From assembly GCA_050633245.1 (NCBI GenBank), contig JBOEGD010000020.1, forward strand, positions 173,492-237,491: a stretch of DNA of 64,000 bases, given 5' to 3'. Source of the DNA: Calditrichia bacterium. Its GTDB lineage: Bacteria > Calditrichota > Calditrichia > RBG-13-44-9 > J075. How positions within the stretch are numbered: position 1 is the stretch's first letter; every line of letters starts with the position of its first letter. Below the pieces are notes generated by a model. It saw only the letters and a list, made by a program, of their open reading frames with translations, had not been told where the DNA came from and searched no databases. Shown here piece after piece: positions 3,383 through 56,829 of the stretch. The position numbers and the translations under genes were made by a program.

Positions 3383-4801
3383 TTAGAGCGAACTCACAAA
3401 GGCAATTAACGCATTTCGATCTGGTCTTGGCAAGTTTTTTACAAAATCTTTCGAGTCCTGTGCTTCTCCACCATGCCACATAATCGCTTCCATCATGTTT
3501 CTGGCACGACCATCGTGTAGAAAAAATGTATGTCCACTAACCAGCTCTGTTAGGCCAATTCCCCAGAGTGGTGGCGTCCGCCACTCCGACCCGGTTGCCT
3601 CAAAGTCCGGACGTCCATCGGCGAGTCCTTCGCCCATATCATGGAGTAGCAAATCGGAATATGGCTGGATCCGTTGATTCGAAACGGACTCAACACCGGA
3701 TAATATGCCGGTTTGCAGCTCAGGCACATGGCATGAAGCACACTTTGCCTGAGTAAAGAGAGCCTCGCCTCTTAATACTTCCGGGTCATCTATGTCTCGC
3801 CTTGCCGGAACTGCCAATGTTTGAGTATAAAACGTGACGGTTTCAAGAAACTCCATGTCGATCTCCGGATCATCCTGGAGTGTGTCTAGCTGGCTTTGGC
3901 CATCCGTGCTTTCCTTAAGAAAAATAGGGCTGGTTATCCCCATATCCTGATGGGCCGCTTCAGCTGTTTGGGTTAACAATGAAGCCGTATTCGCCTTTAA
4001 GCCAAATCGTCCGATCTGAACCGTCTCACTGGCATGATCCCACACGTAATTTGGTCTACCACTAATACCATCGCCATCTGCATCATTCTCGTCTGCGAGT
4101 TGTAGCAGCGTTGCTTCGGGAATGGCCTCCAGCAGGCCTCGCCCAAACACCGCCGGGGCTACTCTTGACGAAATCAATAAACCTGCTGGTAAAGGTTGGT
4201 AGGGGTTAGAAATATTATATGTCGGTTTCCGAAGGCTGTAGCTTTCGCCATCTGGAAATTGAAAGGTCTCTTCCGTCCAGCTGGCGCGAACCTCAGCCTC
4301 GGCGGCGATACCAAAAAGTGATTTGTCTTGCAGCTGAGCTCCAAAACCCGGAACGGGGTTCGGCGCACCGGGAACAGTAGAAGAAACACCGGGCACACTA
4401 ATGCGCAACAGCTGAGATGTTAATTGTTCACCTTCGCCTGCCGGAACGCCACGCCCATCCCGGAAGTGGCAGCCAATACAGGTATTGCCATTGAACACCG
4501 GGCCAAGTCCACTAAACAGTGGTGCCGGTGCTGCAACAAATTCGAATTCGAATGCAGCGTCGCCCTCAAGGTGCTTTTCGAGTTTCACCGCACTTAGGTT
4601 TGATGCAGGGTTGGCAAATGAACGACTATTGGCGATAAATACGGTGGTCTCTCCACCGGATAAATATCGTTTGTCGACGTCCTGTACATCAGATATTGGG
4701 TCTGAGTTCGTTGAACATCCACCGATGAAGAAAACGAATGCCAGGAATAAGGCGCTACTTACATATCTGCAATGATTCATATTAAAGAGCTCTTTTTTCA
4801 T
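3383..4801 (-). CDS. Di-heme oxidoreductase (DHOR family) c-type cytochrome lipoprotein
   Basis: Two CxxCH motifs (CIGCH, CASCH), GLGPVFN, DLLLHDMG, WRTPPLWG and FLHDGRAR motifs, and the lipobox FIGGC. Confidence 0.9.
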   Translation of the reverse strand: MKKELFNMNHCRYVSSALFLAFVFFIGGCSTNSDPISDVQDVDKRYLSGGETTVFIANSRSFANPASNLSAVKLEKHLEGDAAFEFEFVAAPAPLFSGLGPVFNGNTCIGCHFRDGRGVPAGEGEQLTSQLLRISVPGVSSTVPGAPNPVPGFGAQLQDKSLFGIAAEAEVRASWTEETFQFPDGESYSLRKPTYNISNPYQPLPAGLLISSRVAPAVFGRGLLEAIPEATLLQLADENDADGDGISGRPNYVWDHASETVQIGRFGLKANTASLLTQTAEAAHQDMGITSPIFLKESTDGQSQLDTLQDDPEIDMEFLETVTFYTQTLAVPARRDIDDPEVLRGEALFTQAKCASCHVPELQTGILSGVESVSNQRIQPYSDLLLHDMGEGLADGRPDFEATGSEWRTPPLWGIGLTELVSGHTFFLHDGRARNMMEAIMWHGGEAQDSKDFVKNLPRPDRNALIAFVSSL

Positions 4802-4818
4802 GTTGTTTAGGAGGATGC

Positions 4819-5883
4819 CTAGTTTGTTATTAGCGAGCGGAGATCATTTTCCATGGTGCCAACGATCTTGTTGATTGATGCTTGTGCAGCCTCAATTTCG
4901 CTAGTGGCATCCAGGTTGTCACGAAAAGGAAAAGGAATGGCCTGAATAGAAGCGATAGCTGCATTTAGCTCAGAAAGAATTCGAGCATCCAGAGTTGGGT
5001 CTTTCTGATTTACAAATTCGTTCAGACCTGTTCCGGTCACACCATTGTAGTCACCGGTGTAGGCATTTAGGCAGCTGCGCATATTGTTTTCAAAATCGGC
5101 CAGTGAATTAAAGCTAAATTGTGATTCCACGAGAGTAACGTCTTGCTGAGAAAAGGGGTCAGCTATTTTACCATTGGCAACTTCATCGCAAATAATGGAA
5201 ATACCGTCGACAATTTCCAAAACGGCATCGAACTGCGTTTGGTAGCGACTTCCTGGATTGCCGGCATTAATGAATTCACTTGCGAACCCATCCGCCCAGG
5301 CATCGTAAAGACTTTCAGCATCATCAGCAAGAACCTGAGTTGCTGCGGCTAAGTATTCAACTTCACGGGCATCTAAACTGGATACCTGTCGCACAGCTCC
5401 ATCGCGGAAAATAAGAAACTCAATAGTGTGAAACCCCTTGAGTGCATCGCCCAGGCCGTTTGCCACAAAATCTGCTGTTAACGGCTGGCTGCTGGCCAGC
5501 ACATTGTCCAGCTGTGTTCTGTCTACCGGCCAGGAATCGAGAGCCGGATCGAGGCCCTGAATATCGACCGGACCAAAAAGAAACCCTTCACTGGCTTCCC
5601 ATGGCGCGCGCGTTGCAACCCAGGCTGTACCGGCAGCATCGAGGTTGGCCTGAGTTTGATTTGCACTAAATGTTTGCACGGCTGTATTTAATGCCGCTGC
5701 TTCGTCGCGTAAGTCACGATATGTTGCAACGGCAACCTTGTTGGCATATTCGCTAAGAATCGTTGAATAGTCGAAGCTTGGATCGGGGGATGGGCCTGGC
5801 TCAGTTGAGTCTGAACAAGACACTGAAAAAAGCAAAGCGACGCAAAACAGGCTGCTGAAAATACTTGTGTTTCGAAAATTCAT
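4819..5883 (-). CDS. Imelysin (peptidase M75/IrpA-like) iron-regulated lipoprotein
   Basis: Lipobox SVSC, WEASEGFLFGP, DSWP, GFHTIEFLIF (GxHxxE) and ESQFSFNS motifs; AGGAG RBS upstream. Confidence 0.9.
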   Translation of the reverse strand: MNFRNTSIFSSLFCVALLFSVSCSDSTEPGPSPDPSFDYSTILSEYANKVAVATYRDLRDEAAALNTAVQTFSANQTQANLDAAGTAWVATRAPWEASEGFLFGPVDIQGLDPALDSWPVDRTQLDNVLASSQPLTADFVANGLGDALKGFHTIEFLIFRDGAVRQVSSLDAREVEYLAAATQVLADDAESLYDAWADGFASEFINAGNPGSRYQTQFDAVLEIVDGISIICDEVANGKIADPFSQQDVTLVESQFSFNSLADFENNMRSCLNAYTGDYNGVTGTGLNEFVNQKDPTLDARILSELNAAIASIQAIPFPFRDNLDATSEIEAAQASINKIVGTMENDLRSLITN

Positions 5884-5932
5884 ATAATGTTCTCCTTGGA
5901 AATTATGTACTGTTATTGTGTTAGGTTCGCGT

Positions 5933-7192
5933 TTAGTTTGTCGACAACACGTTCAAAAATTCACCCTGAATTCCGAATCCGATGCTGATGGTATTCTCAT
6001 CATTAAACTTGCTGTCACCAAGTGTTCTGTGCGCGTATTCAGCCTTAAAAACCACGTTCTTATTAGGAAGGAAGTTGATGCCGGCAGTAATGACATTACG
6101 CTCGAAGCGTGGATCGGCAAAAACCAGACCTTCGACGTCTTCCATAGAGTTATAGTGTTCGTATCTTAGAAAAGGTAGTAGCTCGCCCTCTGTAGAAGAG
6201 GAATTTAGAGCGAAGAGGTTAAAGGCGCCTTCGATTGAATATAAAGTAGCATTTGCTGCCACAGGTGTTCTTGCAACGCCCAGGTTGTTCGATAGAAGGC
6301 TGTTAGACCTGGTTACCCGGTCGGAGTTTGCAAGATCGCCATAAAGGAATTGACCATAAATGCGCACTTGTTGATTTTGATAGCGCGCATGTGCTTCGGC
6401 AATCGTTACATGGGCATCAATGCCTTCCATGTCGTCTTTGGGACGATTGCCGCTCGTATTGCCACGATAAAACGAACCGGCAAGATGGAAGTTTTTGAAA
6501 CCGGAATAATTTGCGTGCAGGAAATAGGCAAGATCGGTGGCATCAACCTGCTCGAAGCGGCCTTGATAGCCGTCGCGAACCCAGAACTTCGAGCTGAATC
6601 CCGTTCCATCTAGGCCATTAACCAGACCAAGTCTATAGCCTAGGTTTTTCCAGCTTCCGCTTAATGCCAGACCCGTTTCGTGCCAGCTAACCGGGATTAA
6701 CGCACGCGCGGCTTCCGGTCTGCTAACTGTCAGAAAATCGGTTGGCTTATCAAACCTGTTTAGCATTCCGATTGGAATAGTGAAGTGTCCCAGCTGCACG
6801 GAGAATGTTGGTGCAAATGTCTTTTTTAGATAAAATTGCTCAACTAATATCTCGCCGCCCTTTTCCACTTCCTGTTCAAATTCGCCAAATTCCTCGAATT
6901 CGAGCTCAAGTGCGCTGCCGGTGCCACCGTGTTCGTATTCTACCTCAAACTCAACGTACATCGATGAATCAAAATAGTATTTCATCTCGGTAACTACCCG
7001 CGGTATGTCCATAATTGCGCGGCTATCTGAAGGTGAGCCGTTTAAGCCACTTCGTTGATCCGGGCCATAGTCAAAATACGAGTATATTGTTTCTCCATAG
7101 CCTTTTATAATAAATTTTGGAGCGGGTTCTTGTGCATGGACTGAAGAAAATGAAGCTAAGATTAGTGTAAGAATGAGTAGCCGTAAAAACAT
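5933..7192 (-). CDS. Outer-membrane porin-like beta-barrel associated with imelysin
   Basis: Signal peptide, acidic EVEYEHGGTGSALELEFEEFGEFEQEVEKGGE segment, IPVSWHETG motif and alternating beta-strands; first gene of the imelysin/DHOR cluster. Confidence 0.8.
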   Translation of the reverse strand: MFLRLLILTLILASFSSVHAQEPAPKFIIKGYGETIYSYFDYGPDQRSGLNGSPSDSRAIMDIPRVVTEMKYYFDSSMYVEFEVEYEHGGTGSALELEFEEFGEFEQEVEKGGEILVEQFYLKKTFAPTFSVQLGHFTIPIGMLNRFDKPTDFLTVSRPEAARALIPVSWHETGLALSGSWKNLGYRLGLVNGLDGTGFSSKFWVRDGYQGRFEQVDATDLAYFLHANYSGFKNFHLAGSFYRGNTSGNRPKDDMEGIDAHVTIAEAHARYQNQQVRIYGQFLYGDLANSDRVTRSNSLLSNNLGVARTPVAANATLYSIEGAFNLFALNSSSTEGELLPFLRYEHYNSMEDVEGLVFADPRFERNVITAGINFLPNKNVVFKAEYAHRTLGDSKFNDENTISIGFGIQGEFLNVLSTN

Positions 7193-7629: not shown

Positions 7630-8268
7630 TCAGTACATCTTTTTCAACACGTTGAGCGTATCGCCTAGATTATCGGAAACCACATCAGCTTCCTTTAGAA
7701 ACATTGGCGACAAGGTTGTGGTTATGGCTATGCAGCTCATATTGGCTGCTTTAGCGCTGCGAATACCGAATGGAGCATTTTCGATAACCACGCATTCTTC
7801 CGGCTTTGCGTTTAGAGCTTCTGCTGCACGCAGATAGGGTTCTGGTGCCGGCTTTGTGAAAAATACGTCATCTAATGTAACAACGGCGTCAAAATACTCT
7901 ACAATGCCAAAGTTCTCCAGAGCCTCAACAACGCGCGTACGTCGGGCACCACTTACTACACCCAGTCGTAAATCTCGTTCTCTGGCCCAGTTTAACAGAT
8001 CTAACAAATCCGGGTAGAGTTCAATATCCTTGATTTGATCGTAATGCTGACGTTTCTTCTCTACAATATTAGACGCTTCTTCAAATGGTAGATTGAACTT
8101 GCGGGTGAACTGGTTTGCCAATTCTTCCACAGCAGCACCTTCGCGAACGTAAAGTTCTTCCGGGGCCATCTCAATGCCATAGTCCTCCATAGCAAGGCGC
8201 CACCCTTCATAGTGGTCTTCCATGCTGCGGATTAAAACGCCATCAAAGTCGAATAGTACCACTTTCAT
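7630..8268 (-). CDS. HAD-superfamily phosphatase (beta-phosphoglucomutase-like)
   Basis: Motif I DFDGVL, plus VVSG, KPAPEPY and VIENAPFGI motifs. Confidence 0.9.
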   Translation of the reverse strand: MKVVLFDFDGVLIRSMEDHYEGWRLAMEDYGIEMAPEELYVREGAAVEELANQFTRKFNLPFEEASNIVEKKRQHYDQIKDIELYPDLLDLLNWARERDLRLGVVSGARRTRVVEALENFGIVEYFDAVVTLDDVFFTKPAPEPYLRAAEALNAKPEECVVIENAPFGIRSAKAANMSCIAITTTLSPMFLKEADVVSDNLGDTLNVLKKMY

Positions 8269-8449
8269 TGCTATGCTATCCTGGTATTCGCGTAAGTAAT
8301 ACCTAATTTAGAAACACTGGCGGACAACTTTGTGATTTTTTTATCAAATCAATTGTACAAAAATATAGCTGAATTCTCTATTACTTCAAAATTAAATGCC
8401 GCCTGACATTAAAATTTAACGCGTGGTTAAGAAATAAGATTCAGAACGA

Positions 8450-9358
8450 TTACTTTTTCGATTCCGGAGCTTTCAGCACATACTTAGCATATAGCTCTTC
8501 GAGAACACTGCGTGAACGCAAACGCTTTGCTTCTACTCCAGCCTTGCTTAGTCGAGCCAGAACATGTTGAACCTCCGCATCGCCACCGGTAAGCTCTATT
8601 CGTAACTCATCATCATTTTTTTGCACAATCTTATGGGAAACAGCGGCTTGCTGCTCAATGATGGATAGCGCAGCTGCAGTAATGTCTAAAGATAAAACGG
8701 TGTCCAGATCGTCTTGTAAATTGAATTGCTTAATCAATTTTCCCTTGTGAAGTAAGATAACCGAGTTGCACAGAGACTCAAGTTCCTCAAGATTATGCGA
8801 TGCATATAGAATCGTCACGTTTTCGAGTTTCAGTAATAGCTCTCTTAATTTCTTTTTACCATCAGGGTCAAGTCCGGATGTTGGTTCGTCTAAAAGCAAA
8901 ATGGGAGGGCGGTGGAGCAGGGCAATGGCCAGCTGGACGCGCTGTATCATTCCCTTGGAAAAGCTGGACAATAGGAAATCAGACGCGTCAGTAAGTTCGA
9001 CAAATTCGAGTACTTCGCTGATTCTTCTGTTTGAATCAGTTATACTATGCATTTTTGCCGTGGAAGTAAGGAGCTCTGCCGGCGTAAAGTTCTCGAGCCC
9101 CTCCTGTCGCTCCGGGACATAGCCGATAAATCTCCGCGCTGTTTCGAGGTCACTTTCACCATGAATCCGAATTGTGCCGCTGTCGCGTATTATAAAACGT
9201 AAGAGAAGCTTTAATAACGTCGATTTCCCGGAGCCATTCGCACCAATAATTCCCAGTCGTTCTCCCGGAGAAACGCGCAGGTTAAAATTGTCTAAAGCAG
9301 GCTCTGCGTTTTTGCTGTATCGCTTGGAAACTTTGTTTAATTCAATTTCATGAAGCAT
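8450..9358 (-). CDS. ABC-2 type transporter ATP-binding protein (no adjacent permease)
   Basis: Walker A GANGSGKS, signature FSKGM, Walker B LLLDEPTSGLD and H-loop ASH. Confidence 0.9.
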   Translation of the reverse strand: MLHEIELNKVSKRYSKNAEPALDNFNLRVSPGERLGIIGANGSGKSTLLKLLLRFIIRDSGTIRIHGESDLETARRFIGYVPERQEGLENFTPAELLTSTAKMHSITDSNRRISEVLEFVELTDASDFLLSSFSKGMIQRVQLAIALLHRPPILLLDEPTSGLDPDGKKKLRELLLKLENVTILYASHNLEELESLCNSVILLHKGKLIKQFNLQDDLDTVLSLDITAAALSIIEQQAAVSHKIVQKNDDELRIELTGGDAEVQHVLARLSKAGVEAKRLRSRSVLEELYAKYVLKAPESKK

Positions 9359-9416
9359 TTAAGACCCGGACTGTAAGATGATTTACTTTTACTATAGACA
9401 ATTTAGTGTAAGATAC

Positions 9417-9442
9417 GGTATAAAAAACTTGATTTTTATACC
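9417..9442. promoter_or_regulatory. Inverted repeat, candidate operator in the divergent promoter region
   Basis: GGTATAAAAA-N6-TTTTTATACC has perfect 10-bp arms and sits between the ABC ATPase and GT4 genes. Confidence 0.45.
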
Positions 9443-9596
9443 ACTTATGATGATTTTCGATACGTTGGCAACACATTCTGTCGAAAGTCTGTCTTTGCAA
9501 AGTAGATCCTTCAGACTTTCCCCGGCTGCTCAGAAACTGCACATTTAGTAACTCTCAGAATGACGGTTGCATTCCGCTTATTATAATTGACGACAT

Positions 9597-10781
9597 ATGA
9601 TATCCTTGAAAAGTGAAAAGCTGTTGATAGATGACTCGGTCAACTCAGCGATGCGGCGCGCTGGCACAGCGGCATTTGATTGTCTGGCTTTACCCGACAA
9701 ATTTTCAGGAGCGGCATATTACATATATCATTTAACACGAGCCGTACTGCAGTCGAATCGCTCGTTTAATATTGCTGTCATTTGTCGTCCAATACATGCA
9801 GAATTGTTCTCTGCCCTTCTTCTCCCGGGAGATAAGCTTATCACACCGCCCCTCAGTAATCGGTTCGAGAGGTTGTTCTTTTATGAATTTCGCTTGAAAA
9901 CACTTCTGAAGAAACATGCCATCGGTCTTTTCTATGCGATGCATTATATTACGCCACCACGCTCCCGCGATTATTCGATTATCAACACGGTTCATGATCT
10001 GGGGTTTTTGCTGCACCCAAACTATTATCCAATGATAAAACGCCTCTATTTTGGCTCAAGGCTGCCGCTTTTCCTGAAGCGGTCGGATTTGATCTCTGCA
10101 ATCTCGCTTTCGACAGCAGAAAGCTTAAAGAAGCTCTTTCCTCAGTATGCCGATCGAGTGGTGGTAAATGTGCCCGGAACAGATCATTTAATTTTCGAGG
10201 ACGCTTCCGGTGGAATTGTGAATGAGAGGCCCCCTTTTTTCCTCGCTGTAAATACGTTTGAAAAGCGTAAAAATATCCCTTTTCTGGTACGCGTCTTTAA
10301 TCGTCTGAAACAGCAGTATAATATGCCGCATCAGCTCGTTTTAGTCGGCCAGCGGGCCAATGGTGCAGCTGAAGTCTATCGTGAAGTGGAAAACTCTCCT
10401 TATAGTGAAGACATACTGCTACCGGACTGGGTTGAAGAAGATACTCTGGCAAACTATTACCGTCATTGTGATGCGTTCTTAAACGCTTCTTTTTATGAAG
10501 GATTTGGTTTTACTCCACTAGAAGCCATTCGCTATCAGCGCCCGGTATTTCTCTATAAAAACACCACTGCTAATGAATTTCTTGGTAATCAAAAAACAAT
10601 ATTTCCGCATCTTAATGCCGACTCCTGGGCAGATTCCATTTTCTCGGCCTGGAAGAAGGGTTATCCGGAACGAATCTCTCCCGATTCATTTTTGCCGCAT
10701 ACCTGGCAGAAGTCTGCCATCGGAGCGGTGCATCAGATTGAACATCTTATGAAAAAGGATGAGATCCGTGTATCAAAATGA
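9597..10781 (+). CDS. GT4 family glycosyltransferase (MtfB-like)
   Basis: TVHDL, AISLST, NTFEKRKN and SFYEGFGFTPLEA (Ex7E) motifs. Confidence 0.85.
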   Translation: MISLKSEKLLIDDSVNSAMRRAGTAAFDCLALPDKFSGAAYYIYHLTRAVLQSNRSFNIAVICRPIHAELFSALLLPGDKLITPPLSNRFERLFFYEFRLKTLLKKHAIGLFYAMHYITPPRSRDYSIINTVHDLGFLLHPNYYPMIKRLYFGSRLPLFLKRSDLISAISLSTAESLKKLFPQYADRVVVNVPGTDHLIFEDASGGIVNERPPFFLAVNTFEKRKNIPFLVRVFNRLKQQYNMPHQLVLVGQRANGAAEVYREVENSPYSEDILLPDWVEEDTLANYYRHCDAFLNASFYEGFGFTPLEAIRYQRPVFLYKNTTANEFLGNQKTIFPHLNADSWADSIFSAWKKGYPERISPDSFLPHTWQKSAIGAVHQIEHLMKKDEIRVSK

Positions 10782-11610
10782 CATATTAGCCACAATAAAA
10801 TTGGCGCATTTCTACAAAAGTGCATTTACGCCTCAACAGGTTCGCCGCTATATGCGCCGAAAGGTCTCTCAGTCCGATTTCGAAGATCAGCTTGCACAGC
10901 TGATGAGTGAAGGTACTATTTGGCAACAGGATGGTGCATTGTTTAGTGCTGATCTACTCGAGCTTTATAATCAGAAAAAAACCTGGAGTCGTGATCTTTT
11001 TATGGAGCACAAAAAGTTGCTGGGGTGGTTAACCCGAATGCCATGGGTGCGTTTTGTCGCTCTTACCGGGGCAAATTCATTCGAATCTTGCCGTGAAAAT
11101 GATGATATCGATCTGTTTCTGATTACCAGCCCGAAACGTCTGTGGATATCGTATGTTCTGTTAGTCATTTTTAGTAAGTTGTTTAGACGCAGACATGTAT
11201 TTTGCCTGAACTATCTAATCGACGAGACGCATTTGGAGATTCGAAAAAAAGATTATTATACCGCGGTTCAAATAATGCAAATGGTTCCATTAACGAACAA
11301 TTCATTAAGTAACCGCATCTTGCAAAGTAATCGCTGGATACTTTCGATTCTTCCCAATGCAGCATCTGCTCTGGAGAGGAAGCCCTTCTACCATCTCAGC
11401 TCACGCAAATTCCCCAAGGCATCAAAGTTCTCTCCGATGACATTGTTAAACCGTGCTATCTTTAGTGTTTACAGCAGACATCTGCGTCGTAAATATCCGA
11501 TGGAATTCGGTAAGGGAATTGCTCTCAGTGAGGGTGTTGCTCAATTAAACCGGGTAGATCATCACGATAGTTATGTGGATATTTATCGTGAAATAGAGGC
11601 AGCGCTATGA
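10759..11610 (+). CDS. Uncharacterised protein with a Pol-beta-like nucleotidyltransferase motif
   Basis: PWVRFVALTGANS...DDIDLFLIT resembles hG[S/A]x9-13DxD. It is followed by RLW, FCLNY and NxW..LPN motifs and overlaps both neighbouring genes. Confidence 0.65.
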   Translation: MRSVYQNDILATIKLAHFYKSAFTPQQVRRYMRRKVSQSDFEDQLAQLMSEGTIWQQDGALFSADLLELYNQKKTWSRDLFMEHKKLLGWLTRMPWVRFVALTGANSFESCRENDDIDLFLITSPKRLWISYVLLVIFSKLFRRRHVFCLNYLIDETHLEIRKKDYYTAVQIMQMVPLTNNSLSNRILQSNRWILSILPNAASALERKPFYHLSSRKFPKASKFSPMTLLNRAIFSVYSRHLRRKYPMEFGKGIALSEGVAQLNRVDHHDSYVDIYREIEAAL

Positions 11611-13034
11611 AAGTATTAATTAGCCACTCGTATTTTTTATACCTCGATGCAAAGGAGGCTGCTACGGGTAAGCCATATCCACCGTTGGCTTCCATTACCC
11701 TGGTTTCGTGGTTAAAGCAAGAGCTTGGAATTGATGCTGTCTTTCATGACGTAATGTTCGACCGTGATACCAGCGATCTTATTAAAGCCATTCGTCGCGA
11801 GAAACCCGATGTATTTATCTTATATGATGATGATTTTAATTTCCTTACTAAAATGTGCCTGCAAAACATGCGCGAGGCTATTTATGAGGTGATGCAGAAC
11901 GTAGAGAAACCGGGTCTTTTTCTCGCACATGGCTCGGATGCTTCCGATCAGGCCGATGAGTATCTGCGTTCCGGCTTTGATGTGATTGTCAATCGCAATG
12001 CCGAGAAAACAATCGTAGAGTTATTGAGTGCGCTGAAGACAGACGGTAAGCTTCCGGATTTGAATCGCGTCGACGGCATAAATTTCCTGCATGACAATGA
12101 ATTGATCAGCAGGCCGCAAATTCGCAAAAATCTACCGCTTGAAAATGCCCCACAACCTGCCTGGAATTCCATCAGTGTCGAGCCATATCGACAAATGTGG
12201 CAGGCAAGTCAGGGCTATTTTTCGCTGAATGTATCGACTTCTCATGGCTGTCCATTTCGCTGCAACTGGTGCGCAAAACCGCTTTATGGTCGCACCTACA
12301 AATCCATTACTCCTGAACGAGTAGCGGAAGAATTTCGCGTTTTACAGCACGATTTAAAAGCCGATATGCTTTGGATTACCGACGATATTTTTGCCCTGCA
12401 AAAAGGCTGGCTGGGCGAGTTGGCGACTCATCTTGAAGCCAAAAATGTACATATCTCCTATAAGTGTCAGAACCGGGCAGATTTAATTACCGAGGAATTG
12501 GCCGCCGATCTGCAGCGCACAGGGTGTAAGGAAGTATGGCTTGGCGTAGAGTCTGGCTCGCAGAAGATTCTGGATGCAATGGACAAAGATGAAACAGTGG
12601 AAACCATAAAGACCGCGAATCGCATCTTAAAAAAGCATGGTATCGAAGTCGGTTTTTTTCTGCAGTATGGTTATACCGGTGAAGATTATGCAGATATCCA
12701 AAAGACGCTACAGCTGGTTCGCGAGTGCTTGCCGGAACATATTGGAATCTCCGTTTCTTATCCGCTAAAAGACACACCGTTTTACGAACGAGTTGCCGAG
12801 CAGATGGGCGAGAAGAAAAACTGGTCTGACAGTGGCGATCTTGCAATGATGTTTACCGGCAAGTATCATCCGGACTTTTACCGGGCGCTGCACCAATACA
12901 CGCACCACTATTTTGGATTCGTTTCATTATTTAGACCTCAGCCGCTCAAAAAACGTATACGCCGGCTGGCGGCACAGTACAAACACATTCCCGGAATGTT
13001 TAAATATAAACGCATGATGAAGGTCTGGCTATGA
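11607..13034 (+). CDS. Cobalamin-binding domain radical SAM protein (paralog 1)
   Basis: N-terminal PYPPL B12-domain motif, SHGCPFRCNWC (CxxxCxxC), DDIF and GVESGSQKILDAM; ATGA overlap with the upstream gene. Confidence 0.9.
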   Translation: MKVLISHSYFLYLDAKEAATGKPYPPLASITLVSWLKQELGIDAVFHDVMFDRDTSDLIKAIRREKPDVFILYDDDFNFLTKMCLQNMREAIYEVMQNVEKPGLFLAHGSDASDQADEYLRSGFDVIVNRNAEKTIVELLSALKTDGKLPDLNRVDGINFLHDNELISRPQIRKNLPLENAPQPAWNSISVEPYRQMWQASQGYFSLNVSTSHGCPFRCNWCAKPLYGRTYKSITPERVAEEFRVLQHDLKADMLWITDDIFALQKGWLGELATHLEAKNVHISYKCQNRADLITEELAADLQRTGCKEVWLGVESGSQKILDAMDKDETVETIKTANRILKKHGIEVGFFLQYGYTGEDYADIQKTLQLVRECLPEHIGISVSYPLKDTPFYERVAEQMGEKKNWSDSGDLAMMFTGKYHPDFYRALHQYTHHYFGFVSLFRPQPLKKRIRRLAAQYKHIPGMFKYKRMMKVWL

Positions 13035-14416
13035 AGCTGTTGCTAACGCACACTTATTTTTTGGAAGAAGATGCTTACGAGAAAAAGGTGATGAAACCCT
13101 ATCCGCCCTTGGGCATTTTGTATCTTTCTGCATGGATGAAGAAACATGATTGCGATGTGGAAGTATTTGATTCGACATTTTCTTCTTTAGATAAACTTCT
13201 GGAAAAACTGCAAAATGATAAGCCGGACATTCTGGGCATTCACTGTAATCTTCTTACCAAATTTGTTGTGCTAAAGCTGATCCGTTACTGCAATGAGAAT
13301 GGTATCATTGCCCTCTTGGGCGGCCCGGATGCTTCTACCCAGGTTCAGGAGTTTCTTGAGTATGGTGCTGATATCATTATCTCCGGAGAGGGTGAAGATG
13401 CCCTTCTGACCGTAATAACCGAACTGGAGAGTGGGCGTAGTCATCGCGAGCTGCACGATATTTCAAATGTTAGTTTTCGAGACGCCGATGGAAAGATTGT
13501 TCAGAATCTACGGAAGGCCGGCAAGCGGCAGTTGGATGACTATCCCTGGCCAGACCGCGAGGCGATCGATTTAACGCGGTATCTGGATGTCTGGGAAACT
13601 CATCATGGACAGCGCTCGGTTTCATTGATTACTGCACGTGGATGCGCATTTACATGTAAGTGGTGCAGCCATTCGGTTTACGGTCATACACATCGCCGCA
13701 GGCGTCCGGAAAAAGTAGTTGAAGAAATCCGTTGGATTACCAAAACCTACAGGCCGACGCACCTTTGGTATGCCGATGATGTGTTTACTGCCAATAAGCG
13801 CTGGTTGCAAAAGTTCAATGCGCTGATGCAGGCCGAAGGATTGGCGCTGCCGTTTGAATGTATTGCCCGTGCCGACAAAATTGATGATGAAATTGTGCAG
13901 ATTTTAAAAGAACTCGGTTGTTACCGCGTCTGGTTTGGGGCGGAGTCCGGCTCGCAAAAGATTCTGGATGCAATGGCTCGTGGAGTAACCAAGCAGCAGA
14001 TTTCTGATGCGACCAGATGGTGTCGAAAGCATGGTGTTGAAAGCGGTTACTTTGTGATGTTTGGCTATCCCGGTGAAGAATTAACGGACATTTATGAAAC
14101 CATCGATTTTGTTCAGCAGCAACAGCCGGATAAGTATTTAACCACGATTGCCTATCCGCTGCGGGGCACCGCGTTGTTTGATGAAGCGCAATCAGATATT
14201 CTTTACCATAACGAGTGGGAATCGCATTTACAGCGAGAGCTGGAAATTGACAAACGCTTCAGCAGAGAACTCTATCAGTTTGCGATTAAAAAGCTGGCCA
14301 GCGACTATCGTCGCAAGCAGCTGAAAGCGCAGAAACAAGATTTTCCGAAGCAAGTGTATCATGGTTTGCGCTCGTATTATTGCGACGTCAATATTAAGCG
14401 CCTTGCGCGGGCATAG
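13031..14416 (+). CDS. Cobalamin-binding domain radical SAM protein (paralog 2)
   Basis: PYPPLGILYL, LGGPD, SGEGE, ARGCAFTCKWC, DDVF, GAESGSQKILDAM and FGYPGE motifs; ATGA overlap with paralog 1. Confidence 0.9.
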   Translation: MKLLLTHTYFLEEDAYEKKVMKPYPPLGILYLSAWMKKHDCDVEVFDSTFSSLDKLLEKLQNDKPDILGIHCNLLTKFVVLKLIRYCNENGIIALLGGPDASTQVQEFLEYGADIIISGEGEDALLTVITELESGRSHRELHDISNVSFRDADGKIVQNLRKAGKRQLDDYPWPDREAIDLTRYLDVWETHHGQRSVSLITARGCAFTCKWCSHSVYGHTHRRRRPEKVVEEIRWITKTYRPTHLWYADDVFTANKRWLQKFNALMQAEGLALPFECIARADKIDDEIVQILKELGCYRVWFGAESGSQKILDAMARGVTKQQISDATRWCRKHGVESGYFVMFGYPGEELTDIYETIDFVQQQQPDKYLTTIAYPLRGTALFDEAQSDILYHNEWESHLQRELEIDKRFSRELYQFAIKKLASDYRRKQLKAQKQDFPKQVYHGLRSYYCDVNIKRLARA

Positions 14417-14428
14417 CTGATTAAATAT

Positions 14429-14469
14429 GCTTGCTCTTCTCTCTTCGACAGGCTCAGGAGTTAGCAAGC
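14429..14469. repeat. REP-like half element within a GCTTGCT/AGCAAGC hairpin
   Basis: The CTTCGACAGGCTCAGG core resembles the arms of the element at 30017-30082. Confidence 0.4.
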
Positions 14470-14556
14470 CAATCCATTCTTTATCATCTTTAATCTTGCC
14501 GCTGTTGCTATCTTTAAATCGTTTGCATTCCCGCAGATATTTGATGAAAATTATTC

Positions 14557-17298
14557 ATGTCAAAGTCGAAAACCTCAACCTTTTTGCTTCTTGAAACCAA
14601 GCTGTATCGACCGAAGTGGCGATCAGGGATGGTACAGCGTCCGCGCCTTGCAGAAAGACTGCAACTGGGCAGCGAACGCAAGTTGACATTGATCTCTGCT
14701 CCGGCCGGTTTTGGTAAGACTACCTTGCTGGCAGAGTGGTTGGCTACTGCCAAGATGGCAAATCGCACTACTGGCTGGGTTTCACTCGATGCGGGTGATA
14801 ATGACCCAATCTCCTTTTGGACCTACTTTATTAAATCGATTCAAAATATTCAACCCTCGGTTGGTGAAAATGCACTGACACTGCTTCATTCGCCGCAGCC
14901 CGCTGAAGTGGATGAAATTCTCCCAAAGCTCATTAACGAAATAAGCGCAATTGAGAGCGATTTCTCAGTCGTACTCGATGACTATCATCTAATCGAAGCA
15001 GAGGCGATTCAAAAAGCGATGACTTTTTTACTCGATCATACGCCGGCACAAATGCACTTGGTTATCGCGAGCCGTACAGATCCGCCATTGCCTCTCGCCA
15101 AACTACGAGCTCGTGGGGAGCTGGTTGAGTTGCGTATCGCTGACATGCGTTTTGAGCATGAAGAGGCCACCAGCTTTTTTAGTCATTCAATGGGACTCAC
15201 TATTCCCGCGAAAGATGTTGTTGTGCTGGAAACGCGTACCGAAGGTTGGATTGCCGGTCTGCAGTTGGCAGCTCTGTCTTTGCAGGGACGTGATAATATG
15301 GAAGAGTTTATTGCGGACTTTTCTGGCGATGATCGCTATATCGGTGATTATTTGGTGGAGGAGGTGCTCCACCGTCAGCAGGATAGAGTACGTGATTTTC
15401 TATTACAGACATCTATTCTCGCCCGACTAAGTGGAGAACTATGTTACGCTGTAACCGGAGAAGCAGATAGCAAGCAGCTTTTGGAAGAGCTTGAACGTGG
15501 TAATCTCTTTGTGGTTCCGCTGGATGATAAGCGGCAATGGTATCGCTATCATCACTTGTTTGCTGAAGTAATTAATACTCGTCTGAAAAACCTGTATCCC
15601 GATGATGTGTCCATGCTGCATCGTCGTGCAAGTGAGTGGTATCAGCAAAATAGTCAACCTACTTCTGCCGTTTACCATGCTTTTGAATCTAAGGATTTTG
15701 AGTTCACTGCCTCTGTTATTGAATTGGCATGGACAGCAATGCGCAATGGGTATAAGGAAGGAATATTTCTTAGCTGGATGAAAAGAATTCCCGAAGAGTT
15801 TATTCAGGTTAGACCTGTTCTAAGTGTTGTCTACGCGTGGGCATTAATGGATGCAGGAGAATTGGAAGCAGGAGAATTGCGCCTTGATGCTGCAGAAAAG
15901 TGGCTGGAGCTTTTAGATAACCCAAATGGAAAATCCCCATTTCAGAAATCTGATATGGTGGTTACTAATAAGCATTATTTTAATATGTTAGCAGCGACTA
16001 TTGCGTCTGCCCGTGGATATCTATCTTTGGCATTTGGTGATGTTCCGGCTACGATTAACCATACTAAGCGCGCACTGATGCTTTTTCCTAAAAATGAGTA
16101 TTACGATCTTGGAGCACCGGCAGCGCTTTTAGGGCTTGCATACTGGTCCAGTGGGGACCTGACAGCTGCTTATCGTTCCCTTTCTGAAGGCATGGAATTC
16201 CTGAAAAAGTCGGATAATGCACTTCTGGCCATTAGTGGAACGTTTATCCTTGCTGAAATTATTTTGGCTCAGGGGCGTCTTCGTGATGCTATTACAACGT
16301 ATCAACAGTCTTTATTGCTTGCAGAAAAGCAGGGCGAAACAGCTTTTCCGGGAACTGTCGAGCTACATGTAGGTTTATCTGAGCTCTATGAAGAGCGTGG
16401 TGAAAGTGAAGTTGCGGCAGAACATCTGGCCAAAAGTAAGGAGTTGGGTACCGGTGCGATGATCCCAGGGAATGAATCTCGCTTATTCGCTGCCTTTTCG
16501 CGCTTAAAAGCTGCAGATGGGTTCCTGGATGAAGCAATGAAGCTTCTAAATGATGCCGAACAGGCTTATCGCCGGGATCCGGTTCCGGATGTGCGACCAA
16601 TTGGTGCGCTAAAGGCCAGAGTCTTGATTAAGCAGGGAAGGCTCGGCGAAGCGTTGAGCTGGGTTCGGGATGCTGATTTGTCTGTTGTCGATGAGCTGCA
16701 CTACATGCGCGAATTCGAACATATTACCTTGGCCAGAATCTTGTTGGCACTATATATCGCAGATAGCAGTCAGAGCGTTTTAGACCAGGCTGTTCAATTT
16801 TTGCAAAGGCTTCTGGAAGCAGCGGAGGCGGGAGCCAGAAATGGCAGCGTTCTGGAAATTCTCATACTTCAAGCGCTTGTCTATTTAGCAAGTGAAGATA
16901 AAAAAGCGGCTCTTTCTCCACTGGCGCGTGCTCTTGAAATCGCAGAGCCGGAGGGGTATGTCAGATCCTTTACAGGTGAAGGAGAGCCAATGCGTGAGCT
17001 GCTCAGACACGCCGTTGCGGCCGGATTCTCCGGAGACTATGCGCGTCGTCTTCTTACTTCCTTTGAAAAGGCGGAGCAAGCCCGTGCCGGCTCAACAGGT
17101 GCTGCTGTTTTGCTTACCGCTCGCGAGCTGGAAATTGTACGCTTAATTGCAGCAGGACTAAAAAACCAGCAGATTGCAGATCATCTGGTTATTAGCCTAC
17201 ACACGGTAAAACGGCATATTGCCAATGCTTATGGTAAACTTGAGGTCAGTCATCGTACCGAGGCCATTGCCAAAGCAACTGATCTTGGCCTTCTTTAG
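14557..17298 (+). CDS. MalT-like (LAL) ATP-dependent LuxR-family transcriptional regulator
   Basis: SAPAGFGKTT Walker A, LDDYH, TEGW, WYRYHHLF, a TPR region and a C-terminal LTARELEI...LHTVKRHIANAYGKL HTH. Confidence 0.92.
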   Translation: MSKSKTSTFLLLETKLYRPKWRSGMVQRPRLAERLQLGSERKLTLISAPAGFGKTTLLAEWLATAKMANRTTGWVSLDAGDNDPISFWTYFIKSIQNIQPSVGENALTLLHSPQPAEVDEILPKLINEISAIESDFSVVLDDYHLIEAEAIQKAMTFLLDHTPAQMHLVIASRTDPPLPLAKLRARGELVELRIADMRFEHEEATSFFSHSMGLTIPAKDVVVLETRTEGWIAGLQLAALSLQGRDNMEEFIADFSGDDRYIGDYLVEEVLHRQQDRVRDFLLQTSILARLSGELCYAVTGEADSKQLLEELERGNLFVVPLDDKRQWYRYHHLFAEVINTRLKNLYPDDVSMLHRRASEWYQQNSQPTSAVYHAFESKDFEFTASVIELAWTAMRNGYKEGIFLSWMKRIPEEFIQVRPVLSVVYAWALMDAGELEAGELRLDAAEKWLELLDNPNGKSPFQKSDMVVTNKHYFNMLAATIASARGYLSLAFGDVPATINHTKRALMLFPKNEYYDLGAPAALLGLAYWSSGDLTAAYRSLSEGMEFLKKSDNALLAISGTFILAEIILAQGRLRDAITTYQQSLLLAEKQGETAFPGTVELHVGLSELYEERGESEVAAEHLAKSKELGTGAMIPGNESRLFAAFSRLKAADGFLDEAMKLLNDAEQAYRRDPVPDVRPIGALKARVLIKQGRLGEALSWVRDADLSVVDELHYMREFEHITLARILLALYIADSSQSVLDQAVQFLQRLLEAAEAGARNGSVLEILILQALVYLASEDKKAALSPLARALEIAEPEGYVRSFTGEGEPMRELLRHAVAAGFSGDYARRLLTSFEKAEQARAGSTGAAVLLTARELEIVRLIAAGLKNQQIADHLVISLHTVKRHIANAYGKLEVSHRTEAIAKATDLGLL

Positions 17299-25835: not shown

Positions 25836-28800
25836 ATGTTTGTATTCCCCGTGCACGTTGCGTTAAAATCGCCCCGGTTTTTAAAGCGATTGCTTTTATC
25901 CGGAAGTCTCTGGCTTTCGCTCGTTTTGCCAGGTATGCTGTTTTCAGTCCATGCTCGCGAAATCGGCCTTCTTCCCATGGAAATATTTACGCCGGTGCAA
26001 TACGATGCGGCAAATCAAAATTGGGCCATTCTTCAGGCACCCAACGGAATGCTATATGTCGGGAATAGTAAGGGGTTGTTAGAGTATGACGGTACCACCT
26101 GGCACCTTTTTGAGCTTCCCACAATGGGGGCGGTGCGTTCATTGGCCATCGACGAGAATGGTACTCTTTTTATTGGTAGCCAGGAAGAGTTCGGTTACAT
26201 GGATATTAATTCCAATGGAGATATGTCCTATACCTCTCTCTACGAGCATGTAGAAGCGCAGGATTATGGTTTTAATGATGTCTGGAAAACAATTGTAACT
26301 GAAGATGGTGTTTTCTTCCGCACGACGAATAGGTTGTTTCGCTGGGCAAATAATGAGCTTCATGTTTGGCGTTTCCAAAACCGCTTGCAAAATCTGTTGA
26401 AGGTAGACAATAAGCTTTATATTCAGCTGCACGAAACCGGACTTTGTATGTTGATTGACGGCAGTTGGCAACCTGTCTCCGGCCTTGCAGATTTAGGCTC
26501 CTTTCGTATTACAGATATTCATTCTATCTCGGAAAGTCAGTGGCTTGTCTTCCTGCGTAATGAAGGAGTCGTGGAAGTCACGTGTTCGGAAAGTGGGATG
26601 CTCTCAACAAAACCACTTAAAAGCCCGATCTTTACAGAATTCAAAGAAAAACAAATATACTCTTCTACGCGACTTCCAAACGGCAATTTTGCTGTCGGTA
26701 CGGTTTTAGGTGGAATCTACATTATCTCTCCTGAAGGGCATTTGATAAATCGCAGCCATGCGAATAGCGGATTGCCGAGTGATCTTGTTTTAGACATTTT
26801 TCCAGATAATGAAGGCTCTCTTTGGCTGGCTCTTAATAAAGGAATTGCGCGAATTAGCAGCAACTCACCACTAAATATATTTGACGAATATCAGGGGTTA
26901 CAGGAAAATGTGCAGGCAATGGCTCGTTATAAAGATGTTCTTCATTTGTCTACTCAGGATGGACTGTGGAAGCTTGAGCCGACAGAAGGGCTAACAAAAG
27001 TGGTAAAGATCTCTGGCCTTCAAGCGATGAGTTGGGATCTGCTAACATATGAAGACGGAATACTATTGGGCGCCGGTTCAAATATCTATTCTTATGATGG
27101 CGAAGATATTACCAGGCTGGACTTCCCGATTTATTCTACGCCATATGTACTGGAGCGTTCTAAGGTAGATTCCTCCTTGTTTTACGCTGGCCGTGCAAAT
27201 GGCATAACCCGCTTTCGTTATCGCGATGGAGATTGGGAATTTCTGGATCAGATTGAGGGCGTGTCTCATCTTATTCGCTCGCTTGAGGAAGTCTTACCGG
27301 AGCATGAAGGAGGCGCAACAGTTCTTTGGGCTGGAACCCGAACCAATGGAGCTATCAGAGTCGAAATAAATGCAGCAACACAACTTATTGAGCAAGTAAC
27401 GCATTTTCGCGCAGAGAATGGACTTCCACCGGGGCAGATCGATGTTTTCAAAGCGGGTGGAACGCTGGCATTCGGAACGTCAAATGGTATCTATCGTTTT
27501 CGCGAACAGGAAGGTCGGCAAACCAAATTCTTTAAAGACCCGTTAATCACCGGAGCTCTTGGGTTTAGTGAGGCCGACTTTAAAAGCCACGCAGAAACAT
27601 CAAATGGGGATCTTTGGATTGCGTTTGAGGATAGTGTTGGGGTCCTTCGCAATCGTGATGGGATAATGCAGTGGAGCAGTCACGAGCTTAAGGCTTTGGA
27701 AGACATTAATGTAAACCATCTGCATCTCGATGGAGATTCTGTACTTTGGGTTAGCAGTGGTATCGGTCTGTATCGTTATGACCTGGCGAGTGCTGATCGA
27801 AAGGCGTCATCGTTCAATACCTATATTCGAAAAGTACATTTTTTAGAAACGGACTCAACGCTCTACAGTGGAGGACGTGTATCACCTGAAGGAGAATTTA
27901 AGGTAGAGTATTCACAACGAGAGTTGAGCTTTAGCTTTGCGGCGGGCTTTTTCGAACATAGCTTTCGCACGGAATTCAGCTATTTTTTAGAAGGTTTTGA
28001 TAAAACATGGTCTGGCTGGACAAATAAAACGGTTAAAGAATACACCAATATTCCGGAAGGCAGTTACACATTTCGTGTTCGCTCAAGAAATCTGTATGAA
28101 CAACCGGGTGAGGCGGTACTCTTTCAGTTTCAAATTCTGCCGCCGTGGTACCGTAGCTGGTGGGCCTATCTAATTTATTTGACGATTGCAGCGGCTTTTT
28201 GTATTGTGTTGATTCGCTGGAAAACCGCTGGTCTGCTGCGGGAAAATAGTGCCCTTGAGTCGGAAATAAGCGATCGGGCTGCAACGATTCTCGATCAAAA
28301 CCGTCGTCTGGAAGCATATAATAAAGAGCTTCATAAAAAGAATTCTGAAATTGAATGTCGTAATGTAGAGCTCCGGCAGGCGAAAGAAGCTGCTGAAGAG
28401 GCCACTCTTATTAAGAGCGAATTCCTCGCAAATATGAGTCATGAAATTCGAACCCCAATGAATGGTGTCGTCGGCATGACGGAATTACTCTCTGATACGC
28501 CGCTTAACACCGAGCAGCAAGAATTTGTCAGTATTATTCGCACCAGCTCAGAGTCGCTGCTAACAATTATTAACGATATTCTTGATTTCTCACGGGTTGA
28601 GTCTGGAAAGCTGGAGCTGGAGTATTTAGTCTTCGATTTGCAAAAGCTCGTACAGTCTACAATGGATATTTTACAACCGCAGGTTGCGGTAAAACCAGTG
28701 GAGCTGATTCTTGCCAGTGAGGTCGAGATGGATGGATTGATTGTTGGCGCCCCGTGCCGGTTGCGGCAAATCTTGATAAATCTGGTGACAAATGCCATCA

Positions 28801-56516: not shown

Positions 56517-56829
56517 AATTCTTCTCCTTGAATATGTTGCTCGCTTCCTTGCGTGCGTTGTCCTGCATAAAATACGCCGAAGTTTCTGATGGCTTTGGTG
56601 ATGGGAGGACGCAGGTGTGTACAAAGATCGATAGATACGTTTTGGGTGTATCAACCGTAAATAAACCTATCGGTATTTTACTTTTTTCGGTGTGATATAT
56701 TAAGTAATTGAGTATTATTATTTTTAAACTTACCCAAATTGCTTTAGGTCACTCAGTCATCCTGCCACAACATGCTTTTATGGCGAACGAAAGGCTGAAA
56801 TACTACGAAATAATGCGAACGGATGTGTA

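Follow-up and report, generated by a model that had tools for sequence, protein, structure and literature searches.

The 64,000-nucleotide stretch of DNA analyzed here, called the window below, originates from a Calditrichia bacterium (assembly GCA_050633245.1, contig JBOEGD010000020.1, positions 173,492-237,491 of the forward strand). It harbors a cassette of four genes encoding a GT4-family glycosyltransferase, a protein of a family without a name (open reading frame 2, ORF2) and two radical SAM proteins, rSAM_A and rSAM_B (Table 1). An initial annotation had described an overlapping operon at 9597-14416; the coordinates, the plus strand and all three junctions have been verified. The ATG of ORF2 is located at 10759 and the TGA of the GT4 gene ends at 10781, resulting in an overlap of 23 nucleotides. 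The ORF2/rSAM_A and rSAM_A/rSAM_B junctions each consist of an ATGA, a 4-nucleotide overlap. Translation of ORF2 may start from a GTG at 10768 rather than from the ATG at 10759. Homologues in a 22-sequence alignment start at this aligned position, an AAGGA is placed 10 nucleotides upstream, and the overlap with the GT4 gene would shrink to 14 nucleotides. A promoter scan revealed a single sigma-70-like site at 9560-9587 with 10 of 12 matches; over 9300-14700, promoter and terminator sites were no more numerous than in shuffled sequences. Rfam models matched nothing over the whole window at gathering scores and nothing in 9300-9700 at E ≤ 1; hence, the cassette is not preceded by a cobalamin riboswitch.

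Table 1. Features of the four-gene cassette and its immediate surroundings (positions within the window).
Feature	Coordinates	Strand	Length	Remarks
GT4 (gene 1)	9597-10781	+	394 residues	First gene of the cassette; from the open reading frame list and Pfam
ORF2 (gene 2)	10759-11610	+	283 residues	Family without a name; no Pfam or NCBIfam match
rSAM_A (gene 3)	11607-13034	+	475 residues	Radical_SAM; divergent Rossmann (B12-like) N-terminal domain
rSAM_B (gene 4)	13031-14416	+	461 residues	Radical SAM protein with B12-binding domain; paralogue of rSAM_A
Intergenic region, presumed promoter region	9359-9596	divergent	238 nucleotides	Gap between the minus-strand ABC ATPase gene and the GT4 gene
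HAD hydrolase and ABC ATPase gene pair	7630-9358	-		Divergently upstream of the cassette
MalT-like STAND/LuxR regulator	14417-17298			TPR_MalT (1.1e-58) and GerE; starts 140 nucleotides after rSAM_B

The product of the first gene is, judged by its sequence, a GT4-family glycosyltransferase of the GT-B, retaining type. Its C-terminal Glycos_transf_1 domain scored 70.1 bits (E 2.1e-19, gathering score 26.4) and its N-terminal Glyco_transf_4 domain 36.2 bits (cut-off 28.5) in Pfam. The E-x7-E motif of the GT4 family is present at residues 301-309 (E301, E309). The closest solved relative is the mannosyltransferase WbaZ-1 (1e-06). No NCBIfam equivalog was reached, the best match scoring 39.5 bits against 259.85. 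Residues 26-327 align to residues 4-295 of a fused 674-residue protein from an Ignavibacteriaceae locus (L036; 28% identity, E 2e-25), and residues 12-268 of ORF2 align to residues 376-626 of the same protein (E 5e-28). Each of the two window genes corresponds to one half of this fusion protein, and their order is the same.

ORF2 matches no Pfam family even at E ≤ 10, and no NCBIfam model. A word-indexed search retrieved 44 relatives, every one of them unnamed or 'hypothetical'. G104, D116, D118, D155 and E156 are among the invariant residues of the 22-sequence alignment. The signature G104-A-x10-D116-I-D118 (G104-x11-D116) contains a glycine and two aspartates that are invariant in the 22 sequences as well as in 110 family members. 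Its second residue is an alanine in the ORF2 of the window, and the wider family has an SGx/SGS consensus. D155-E156 represents a third acidic position, invariant in the 22 close members. Such a combination of G..DxD and a third acidic residue is typical of Pol-beta-type nucleotidyltransferases. Invariant across the 110 members are P95, G104, D116, D118, C149 and N151. An AlphaFold2 model of ORF2 (pLDDT 90.3, pTM 0.85) comprises a winged-helix-like N-terminal domain, built of three helices plus a hairpin (residues about 1-62), a strand/helix core (residues about 95-156) and a helical C-terminal part. Foldseek searches against the PDB identified MNT antitoxins as best match (E 5.5e-3, probability 0.97), followed by AadA, ANT(4') and kanamycin nucleotidyltransferase. 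The matches to nucleotidyltransferases are weak, with none at E ≤ 1e-3 and template modelling (TM) scores of 0.2-0.3, and the N-terminus gave weak matches to winged-helix regulators. ORF2 has the G..DxD nucleotidyl-transfer core in common with these nearest structures; it differs in its extra N- and C-terminal domains, and unlike MNT it has no HEPN partner and is instead fused to or adjoining a GT4. A profile of the 22 close relatives found nothing among the PDB sequences at E ≤ 10, and a profile of 110 family sequences found only an MNT antitoxin (1.3e-3).

The family of ORF2 is large. At E ≤ 1e-3, a profile search of 1.84 billion representatives yielded 5228 representative clusters, of which 3596 remained at E ≤ 1e-10 and 118 at E ≤ 1e-30. 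Among 110 of the best 150 members, scanned with Pfam at E ≤ 0.01, Polbeta (PF18765) was matched by 35 and NTP_transf_2 (PF01909) by 34. Neighbours in the ESM Atlas carry NTP_transf_2 on 16-41% of members. The recurrent fusion partners are sugar enzymes: a GT4 domain is fused in 28 of the 110 members, a class I methyltransferase in two, and an NAD epimerase/dehydratase and a GT2 in one each. Ten members are named in their sources 'hypothetical' or after the fused domain; a member from Aureispira anguillae is called 'NAD-dependent epimerase/dehydratase family protein'. The nucleotidyltransferase fold ascribed to ORF2 in the initial annotation is supported indirectly, by the conserved signature and by the Polbeta and NTP_transf_2 matches of relatives, although a Pfam match of its own is absent and the fold matches lie above E 1e-3. 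Therefore, ORF2 is most probably a member of a large, nameless branch of the Pol-beta nucleotidyltransferase superfamily.

Both radical SAM proteins match Radical_SAM (rSAM_A 2.4e-19, rSAM_B 1.1e-20) and carry the cluster motif as C215-x3-C219-x2-C222 and C205-x3-C209-x2-C212, respectively. This CxxxCxxC is invariant in the ortholog alignments of clade A, to which rSAM_A belongs, and of clade B, to which rSAM_B belongs. Both had been described as B12-radical SAM enzymes with a cobalamin-binding domain. The cysteine motif holds for the two proteins and the B12-binding domain (PF02310) is clear in rSAM_B (49.3 bits, cut-off 32.1), whereas rSAM_A stays under the same cut-off with 19.7 bits. At E ≤ 0.01, the domain was matched by 24 of 31 clade A and by all 20 clade B orthologs. 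The 'GGPDAS' of clade B corresponds to 'xSSDAxD' in clade A, where the GGP is replaced. A GG motif has a role in corrinoid binding. Clade A possesses an invariant segment of its own with D74, D75, F77, N78, K82-L85, M88 and R89. A profile alignment of the two clades over 465 columns gave 28% identity.

By sequence, the solved protein closest to rSAM_A is AprD4 (6.5e-17), followed by 9CCB and CysS. An AlphaFold2 model of rSAM_A (pLDDT 91.4) matched MgmA (5.8e-22), AprD4 (TM 0.71/0.74), OxsB, TsrM, CysS and TokK. As modelled, its fold is the Rossmann-plus-barrel architecture of class B enzymes. For rSAM_B, 9CCB is closest by sequence (8.4e-21), followed by AprD4, OxsB and TokK. According to a review, 9CCB is MgmA/QCMT, which C-methylates a glutamine of methyl-coenzyme M reductase (MCR) in a B12-dependent manner, and AprD4 lies within the sequence network of B12-type radical SAM enzymes, yet does not bind cobalamin (PMC12931638). 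Since AprD4 shares the network without binding the cofactor, architecture does not settle cofactor use. MgmA/QCMT (PDB 9CCB) combines a B12 domain with a radical SAM barrel. Among solved proteins it comes closest to rSAM_B, and it also leads the fold matches of rSAM_A; it acts on a methanogen protein, and no MCR genes are present here.

No curated NCBIfam model was reached by either protein. The scores of rSAM_A and rSAM_B were 111.4 and 147.2 bits for BchE (TIGR02026, cut-off 481.35), 84.8 and 130.8 bits for HpnJ (TIGR03471, cut-off 577.6), 63.3 and 66 bits for HpnR (TIGR04367, cut-off 650), 101.3 and 149.8 bits for the P-methyltransferase PhpK (TIGR04479, cut-off 600), 70.8 and 63.1 bits for the AprD4 diol-dehydratase (NF033070, cut-off 500) and 78 and 116 bits for the MgmA-type TIGR04014 (cut-off 360). 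HpnP was not among the 25 best NCBIfam matches listed for either protein, and bacteriochlorophyll genes are absent from the window. The suspicion that the usual BchE and hopanoid labels of automatic annotation are wrong here was thus well founded, with 63-147 bits for BchE, HpnJ and HpnR against cut-offs of 481-650. Close relatives of rSAM_A, of which at least 7990 exist at E ≤ 1e-60, are named 'anaerobic magnesium-protoporphyrin IX monomethyl ester cyclase' (BchE) or 'YgiQ' in public (JGI) data. Niastella caeni, of the Chitinophagaceae, encodes a homologue with 47% identity to rSAM_A.

A neighbourhood that is not conserved in other genomes had been named as grounds for refutation. The set does recur: a scan with one genome per species gave 73 loci with an ORF2 relative under 12 phylum labels. 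These are Calditrichota (19 loci), Bacteroidota (13), 'Pseudomonadota' (11, from records titled uncultured proteobacterium), Myxococcota (9), Ignavibacteriota (8), Chloroflexota (4) and, with one locus each, Acidobacteriota, Balneolota, Eiseniibacteriota, Gemmatimonadota, Thermodesulfobacteriota and Verrucomicrobiota; three loci are unlabelled. The weakest loci, L071-L073, are distant (E about 1e-8). In 28 of the 73 loci a GT4 is fused to ORF2, and in 20 its gene lies directly upstream; 25 loci have none. Counting the 66 loci whose upstream side can be judged, 47 have it fused or upstream. Full-length clade A proteins are encoded in 34 loci; in 30 of these the gene lies on the strand of ORF2 and within 100 nucleotides of its stop, and the exact 4-nucleotide overlap is found in 17 of the 34. 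As the same order recurs elsewhere and half of these loci repeat the overlap, the coupling goes beyond chance. The four genes form one conserved functional, transcription-coupled unit.

A tree of 73 radical SAM sequences from these loci (quick search, SH-aLRT support only, rows below 380 residues left out) resolved three clades. Clade A comprises 35 rows (support 99) including rSAM_A, its sister clade B (support of the pairing 97) 26 rows (support 98) including rSAM_B, and clade C 11 rows (support 99). Clades A and B each hold Calditrichota, Bacteroidota and Ignavibacteriota; hence, their duplication is old. Clade C consists of radical SAM proteins of about 500 residues (loci L009, L012, L025, L034, L041, L045, L046, L050, L056, L059 and L060). 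Two members were scanned; their best model was HpnJ with 121.5 bits, below its cut-off, and Pfam B12-binding was matched at 1.3e-13. Clade C is found alongside clade A in some loci of Bacteroidota, Ignavibacteriota and others, sometimes taking the place of clade B. At least 7 kb of downstream sequence is available for 47 loci; 25 of them encode an A-type protein, 17 a B-type, 9 a C-type and 33 any radical SAM protein at all. The remaining 14 are devoid of radical SAM genes, which makes these enzymes optional partners of a GT4-ORF2 core. Clade A occurs with B, with C (L025, L034, L050, L056 and L059) or with both; a constant A-type protein is combined with variable B or C partners. The heterodimer of rSAM_A and rSAM_B that had been considered earlier finds no support, as A pairs with C instead of B in these five loci; sequential tailoring fits better than an obligate A-B pair. 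A complex prediction for the pair scored 0.00 and 0.00 against a mark of 0.32 and, run without controls, counts neither way.

Methyltransferases are further partners. A class I methyltransferase of about 270 residues (MT270) is normally encoded as the fifth member of the cassette; the window is without it. Of the 47 loci with 7 kb or more downstream, 32 encode MT270, and so do all 15 Calditrichota loci that have 4.5 kb or more downstream. For MT270 genes (e.g. L001:11983-12741 and L036:11119-11925), the best NCBIfam model is CpaM with 46-62 bits (cut-off 180). The similarity to CpaM, a 'corrinoid protein-associated methyltransferase', gives a weak hint of a possible link to corrinoid chemistry. 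In three Calditrichota-like loci (L014, L020 and L023), GT4 and ORF2 are followed by two MT270-type genes, and no radical SAM gene is found in about 7.9 kb downstream. These loci represent a radical-free version of the cassette.

In other phyla, the cassette is located among genes for glycan synthesis. The gene order in Ignavibacteriaceae is GT4-ORF2 fusion, clade A, FkbM methyltransferase, MT270, clade B, GT87 and GT9. In Polyangia and related loci, the fusion has a Wzx-type flippase on one side and Wzy_C on the other, followed by another GT4, two unknown proteins, MT270 and a radical SAM protein. An Eisenbacteria locus contains two Wzx genes, Wzy_C, the GT4-ORF2 fusion, GT9 and members of clades B and A. 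Of the 73 loci, 13 contain the Wzx cluster, 14 Wzy_C, 14 an additional GT4, 6 an NAD epimerase and 5 an ABC exporter; GT2 was also observed next to ORF2 relatives. Pfam scans covered 67 neighbour proteins from representative loci, a sample of the 73. At the thresholds used, no sugar-1-phosphate nucleotidylyltransferase of the NTP_transferase type, no hopanoid enzyme and no pigment enzyme was found among these proteins. Neighbours such as Wzx, Wzy, GT9, GT87 and sugar epimerases point to surface glycans and not to lipids or pigments.

We propose to read the operon as the minimal version of a sugar-tailoring cassette that is widespread but undescribed and that would feed a cell-surface polysaccharide or a glycan of the lipopolysaccharide type. 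This reading is held tentatively, with confidence a little short of even. We infer a substrate and an order of steps as follows. The GT4 and ORF2 would work as one bifunctional unit. ORF2, as a Mg-dependent nucleotidyltransferase of the Pol-beta type, would most likely put a nucleotide handle on a sugar or sugar phosphate. rSAM_A would act on the nucleotide-linked intermediate by 5'-deoxyadenosyl radical chemistry and may be non-methylating. Its cobalamin-domain paralogue rSAM_B most likely methylates an unactivated carbon. The GT4 would then move the finished sugar onto the growing glycan. In the rml-type sets of O-antigen and exopolysaccharide loci, a sugar is activated with a nucleotide, tailored and handed over by a glycosyltransferase within a Wzx/Wzy locus. 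The logic proposed for the cassette is alike, and glycan neighbours are seen in its relatives; the activator would be a Pol-beta-fold nucleotidyltransferase and not of the RmlA/GalU type, and the tailoring enzymes would be radical SAM proteins and not NAD- or pyridoxal-phosphate-dependent. The division of labor in the initial annotation, in which the nucleotidyltransferase activates, the radical SAM enzymes tailor and the GT4 transfers, fits the gene structure, domain identities, conservation, fusion and glycan context, and is kept here as a proposal.

Several observations favour this route. The fusions of ORF2 relatives to NAD epimerase/dehydratase, class I methyltransferases and GT2 involve enzymes of the sugar-nucleotide type. 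A precedent by analogy is offered by the nearest solved relatives, a proven B12-dependent C-methylase for rSAM_B and, for rSAM_A, AprD4, which acts on a sugar. The lack of a canonical activator of sugar 1-phosphates among the scanned neighbours counts for ORF2 in this role. Other observations weigh against the route. The roles of all four families are predictions. The closest solved relatives of ORF2, themselves weak matches, put AMP on protein tyrosines or aminoglycoside hydroxyls and not on sugar phosphates, and its winged-helix-like N-terminal domain has no role in the model. The B12-binding score of rSAM_A falls below the cut-off, and cobalamin binding cannot be read from sequence. Radical SAM genes are missing at 14 of the 47 loci, and the 64 kb of the window are without a Wzx, Wzy or other glycosyltransferase gene. 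In contrast to all 15 comparable Calditrichota loci, the window cassette is without MT270; thus, it could be a reduced or decaying version. A further-reaching claim is doubtful: ORF2 would found a new class of sugar-activating enzymes, Pol-beta-fold nucleotidyltransferases often fused to GT4, and clades A, B and C would C-methylate or deoxygenate a nucleotide-linked sugar.

The same genes may act on the acceptor side. The GT4 would add a sugar, ORF2 would decorate it on the polymer or lipid-linked repeat with a nucleotidyl or phospho-linked substituent, and the radical SAM enzymes and methyltransferases would modify the decorated residue. The GT4-ORF2 fusion (28 of 73 loci) suits two consecutive steps on one acceptor equally well, MNT, AadA and ANT(4') nucleotidylate hydroxyls of finished molecules, and the glycan context is identical under both readings. 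LicD and FKRP have a nucleotidyltransferase fold and decorate acceptors; ORF2, without any Pfam match at E ≤ 10, has none to LicD. No cytidylyltransferase or other enzyme making a CDP-linked donor recurs in the loci scanned, known relatives of both radical SAM proteins act on small molecules or protein and not on polymers, and the fusions to NAD epimerase/dehydratase fit sugar-nucleotide chemistry better. Acceptor-side decoration is accordingly considered rather unlikely. A modest preference for the donor side follows from the fusions of ORF2 to sugar-nucleotide-type enzymes, from the small-molecule substrates of the solved radical SAM relatives and from the missing donor-making cytidylyltransferase. 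A modification of membrane lipids is improbable. In such a pathway, the GT4 would form a glycolipid and the radical SAM enzymes would methylate or cyclize the lipid or its head group, similar to hopanoids or tetraethers. Some GT4 enzymes make glycolipids, and a model for alpha-monoglucosyldiacylglycerol synthase matched the GT4 at 4.9e-07. The HpnI/HpnK/HpnJ route to a hopanoid head group has a related design, as a glycosyltransferase adds a sugar that a B12-type radical SAM enzyme remodels. The window is without polysaccharide export genes, and the radical SAM proteins resemble lipid models weakly (HpnJ 85-131, HpnR 63-66, 'lipid biosynthesis B12-binding/radical SAM' 87-124 bits). All of these scores are far under the curated cut-offs of 360-650 bits (577.6 for HpnJ, with 85 and 131 reached), no squalene-hopene cyclase, hopanoid gene or other lipid-pathway gene occurs in the window or the loci scanned, and the recurrent neighbours are Wzx, Wzy_C and further glycosyltransferases. 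Of the targets initially offered for the GT4, a lipid is less likely than a polysaccharide, given neighbours that include Wzx, Wzy_C, GT9, GT87, GT2, NAD epimerase and an ABC exporter.

A small-molecule natural product resembling an aminoglycoside or nucleoside, with ORF2 as resistance or activation nucleotidyltransferase, appears decidedly improbable. The combination of a GT4, an AprD4-like and a B12-type radical SAM protein and an ANT-like fold echoes aminoglycoside tailoring, and a literature search for this set brought up mainly aminoglycoside papers. GenK is a B12-dependent radical SAM C-methylase of this tailoring. Radical SAM proteins of class B architecture act there on sugars beside GT4-family transferases, as in the case of AprD4 (PDB 6FD2). 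However, the two radical SAM proteins reach 63-71 bits with the AprD4 family model (cut-off 500), neither aminocyclitol genes nor a set of cyclitol synthase, aminotransferase or dehydrogenase is present in the window or the loci scanned, and the context is polysaccharide, not antibiotic. Wzx/Wzy loci and the spread over 12 phylum labels are unlike a specialized antibiotic cluster. An anti-phage or conflict system composed of a nucleotidyltransferase, a GT4 and radical SAM enzymes is very improbable indeed. MNT-type nucleotidyltransferases occur in toxin-antitoxin pairs, the GT4 passes the Pfam model 'GT4-conflict' (33.4 bits, cut-off 26), and rSAM_B matches the candidate model PDC-M51A (4.9e-17). 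The general GT4 models describe the GT4 much better, a toxin partner (HEPN or other) is absent, and the stable place in polysaccharide loci and on syntenic Calditrichota chromosomes is unlike a defence island. PADLOC-DB 2.0 gave no match to the GT4 or ORF2 and only the candidate PDC-M51A for the radical SAM proteins; no defence system was identified.

Upstream of the cassette, the HAD protein belongs to the beta-phosphoglucomutase or BT2121-type pyrophosphatase family, with scores below the cut-offs, and the ABC ATPase gene has no permease gene alongside. Besides the window, 8-10 Calditrichota loci have this pair divergently upstream of the cassette; other phyla do not. The HAD product would suit the supply of a sugar 1-phosphate or the removal of pyrophosphate; little weight is put on it, because the synteny is confined to Calditrichota. 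A compatible-solute pathway like that of sucrose-phosphate synthase, with the GT4 and the upstream HAD protein, was considered and dropped, as the HAD/ABC synteny is found in Calditrichota only and other phyla show polysaccharide genes. Downstream, the MalT-like regulator scored 452.7 bits with the MalT model (cut-off 537). It occupies the place where the 15 comparable Calditrichota loci have a methyltransferase; thus, the 3' end of the cassette looks truncated or rearranged. When nine methyltransferases of related loci were compared with the window by tblastn, the lowest E was 0.14. The neighbours in the window are unrelated: di-haem peroxidase, imelysin, HAD hydrolase, ABC ATPase, MalT-like regulator and TonB-dependent receptors. 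In agreement with the initial annotation, no bacteriochlorophyll, hopanoid, polyketide synthase or nonribosomal peptide synthetase (NRPS) module gene stands beside the operon; small precursors of RiPPs, peptides made on the ribosome and modified after translation, were not searched for.

Further genes of the window are recorded here. A stand-alone Condensation-domain protein of the NRPS type (4.6e-23, 676 residues, 54627-56654, minus strand) is encoded 40 kb from the operon, without an adenylation or carrier domain alongside. A 5'-open reading frame at 3-2921 (at least 972 residues) contains right-handed beta-helix/NosD repeats; its C-terminus resembles a type IX secretion sorting tail by eye, without confirmation by a profile. 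On the minus strand at 3383-7192, a DHOR di-haem oxidoreductase (1.6e-111), an imelysin (Peptidase_M75, 9.2e-63) and a protein of 419 residues without Pfam match are encoded in a row. Two very large hybrid sensor kinases are located at 25836-29984 (1382 residues), identified from reading of the translation only, and at 38018-41935 (1306 residues), with Reg_prop/Y_Y_Y propeller repeats, HisKA/HATPase and receiver domains.

The four proteins all derive from known superfamilies, and glycan-tailoring cassettes are known as a kind. The combination, the unnamed nucleotidyltransferase family, its fusion to GT4 and the dedicated radical SAM clades in polysaccharide loci appear undescribed. The statement that no characterized pathway is known to have this gene set agrees with the literature searched, in which no description was found; the search did not extend to some 1.7 million articles of PubMed Central or to most papers behind subscriptions. 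If the proposal is correct, thousands of genes now called 'hypothetical', 'BchE' or 'YgiQ' would fall into a single route of glycan tailoring. Radical SAM enzymes would then modify sugars in the surface polysaccharides of environmentally abundant phyla, and cobalamin supply would be linked to the structure of the cell envelope. For a large nucleotidyltransferase family without a name, a defined role would emerge, together with an informative fusion partner. Should the further-reaching claim on ORF2 and clades A, B and C hold, this would be the first cobalamin/radical SAM sugar chemistry in primary cell-envelope polysaccharide synthesis, and it would yield branched or deoxy sugars that have yet to be assigned to a pathway in the FCB (Fibrobacteres, Chlorobi and Bacteroidetes) group, Myxococcota and other phyla. 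Should details of the model prove wrong, the conserved fusion of GT4 and ORF2 still marks a bifunctional enzyme worth characterizing.

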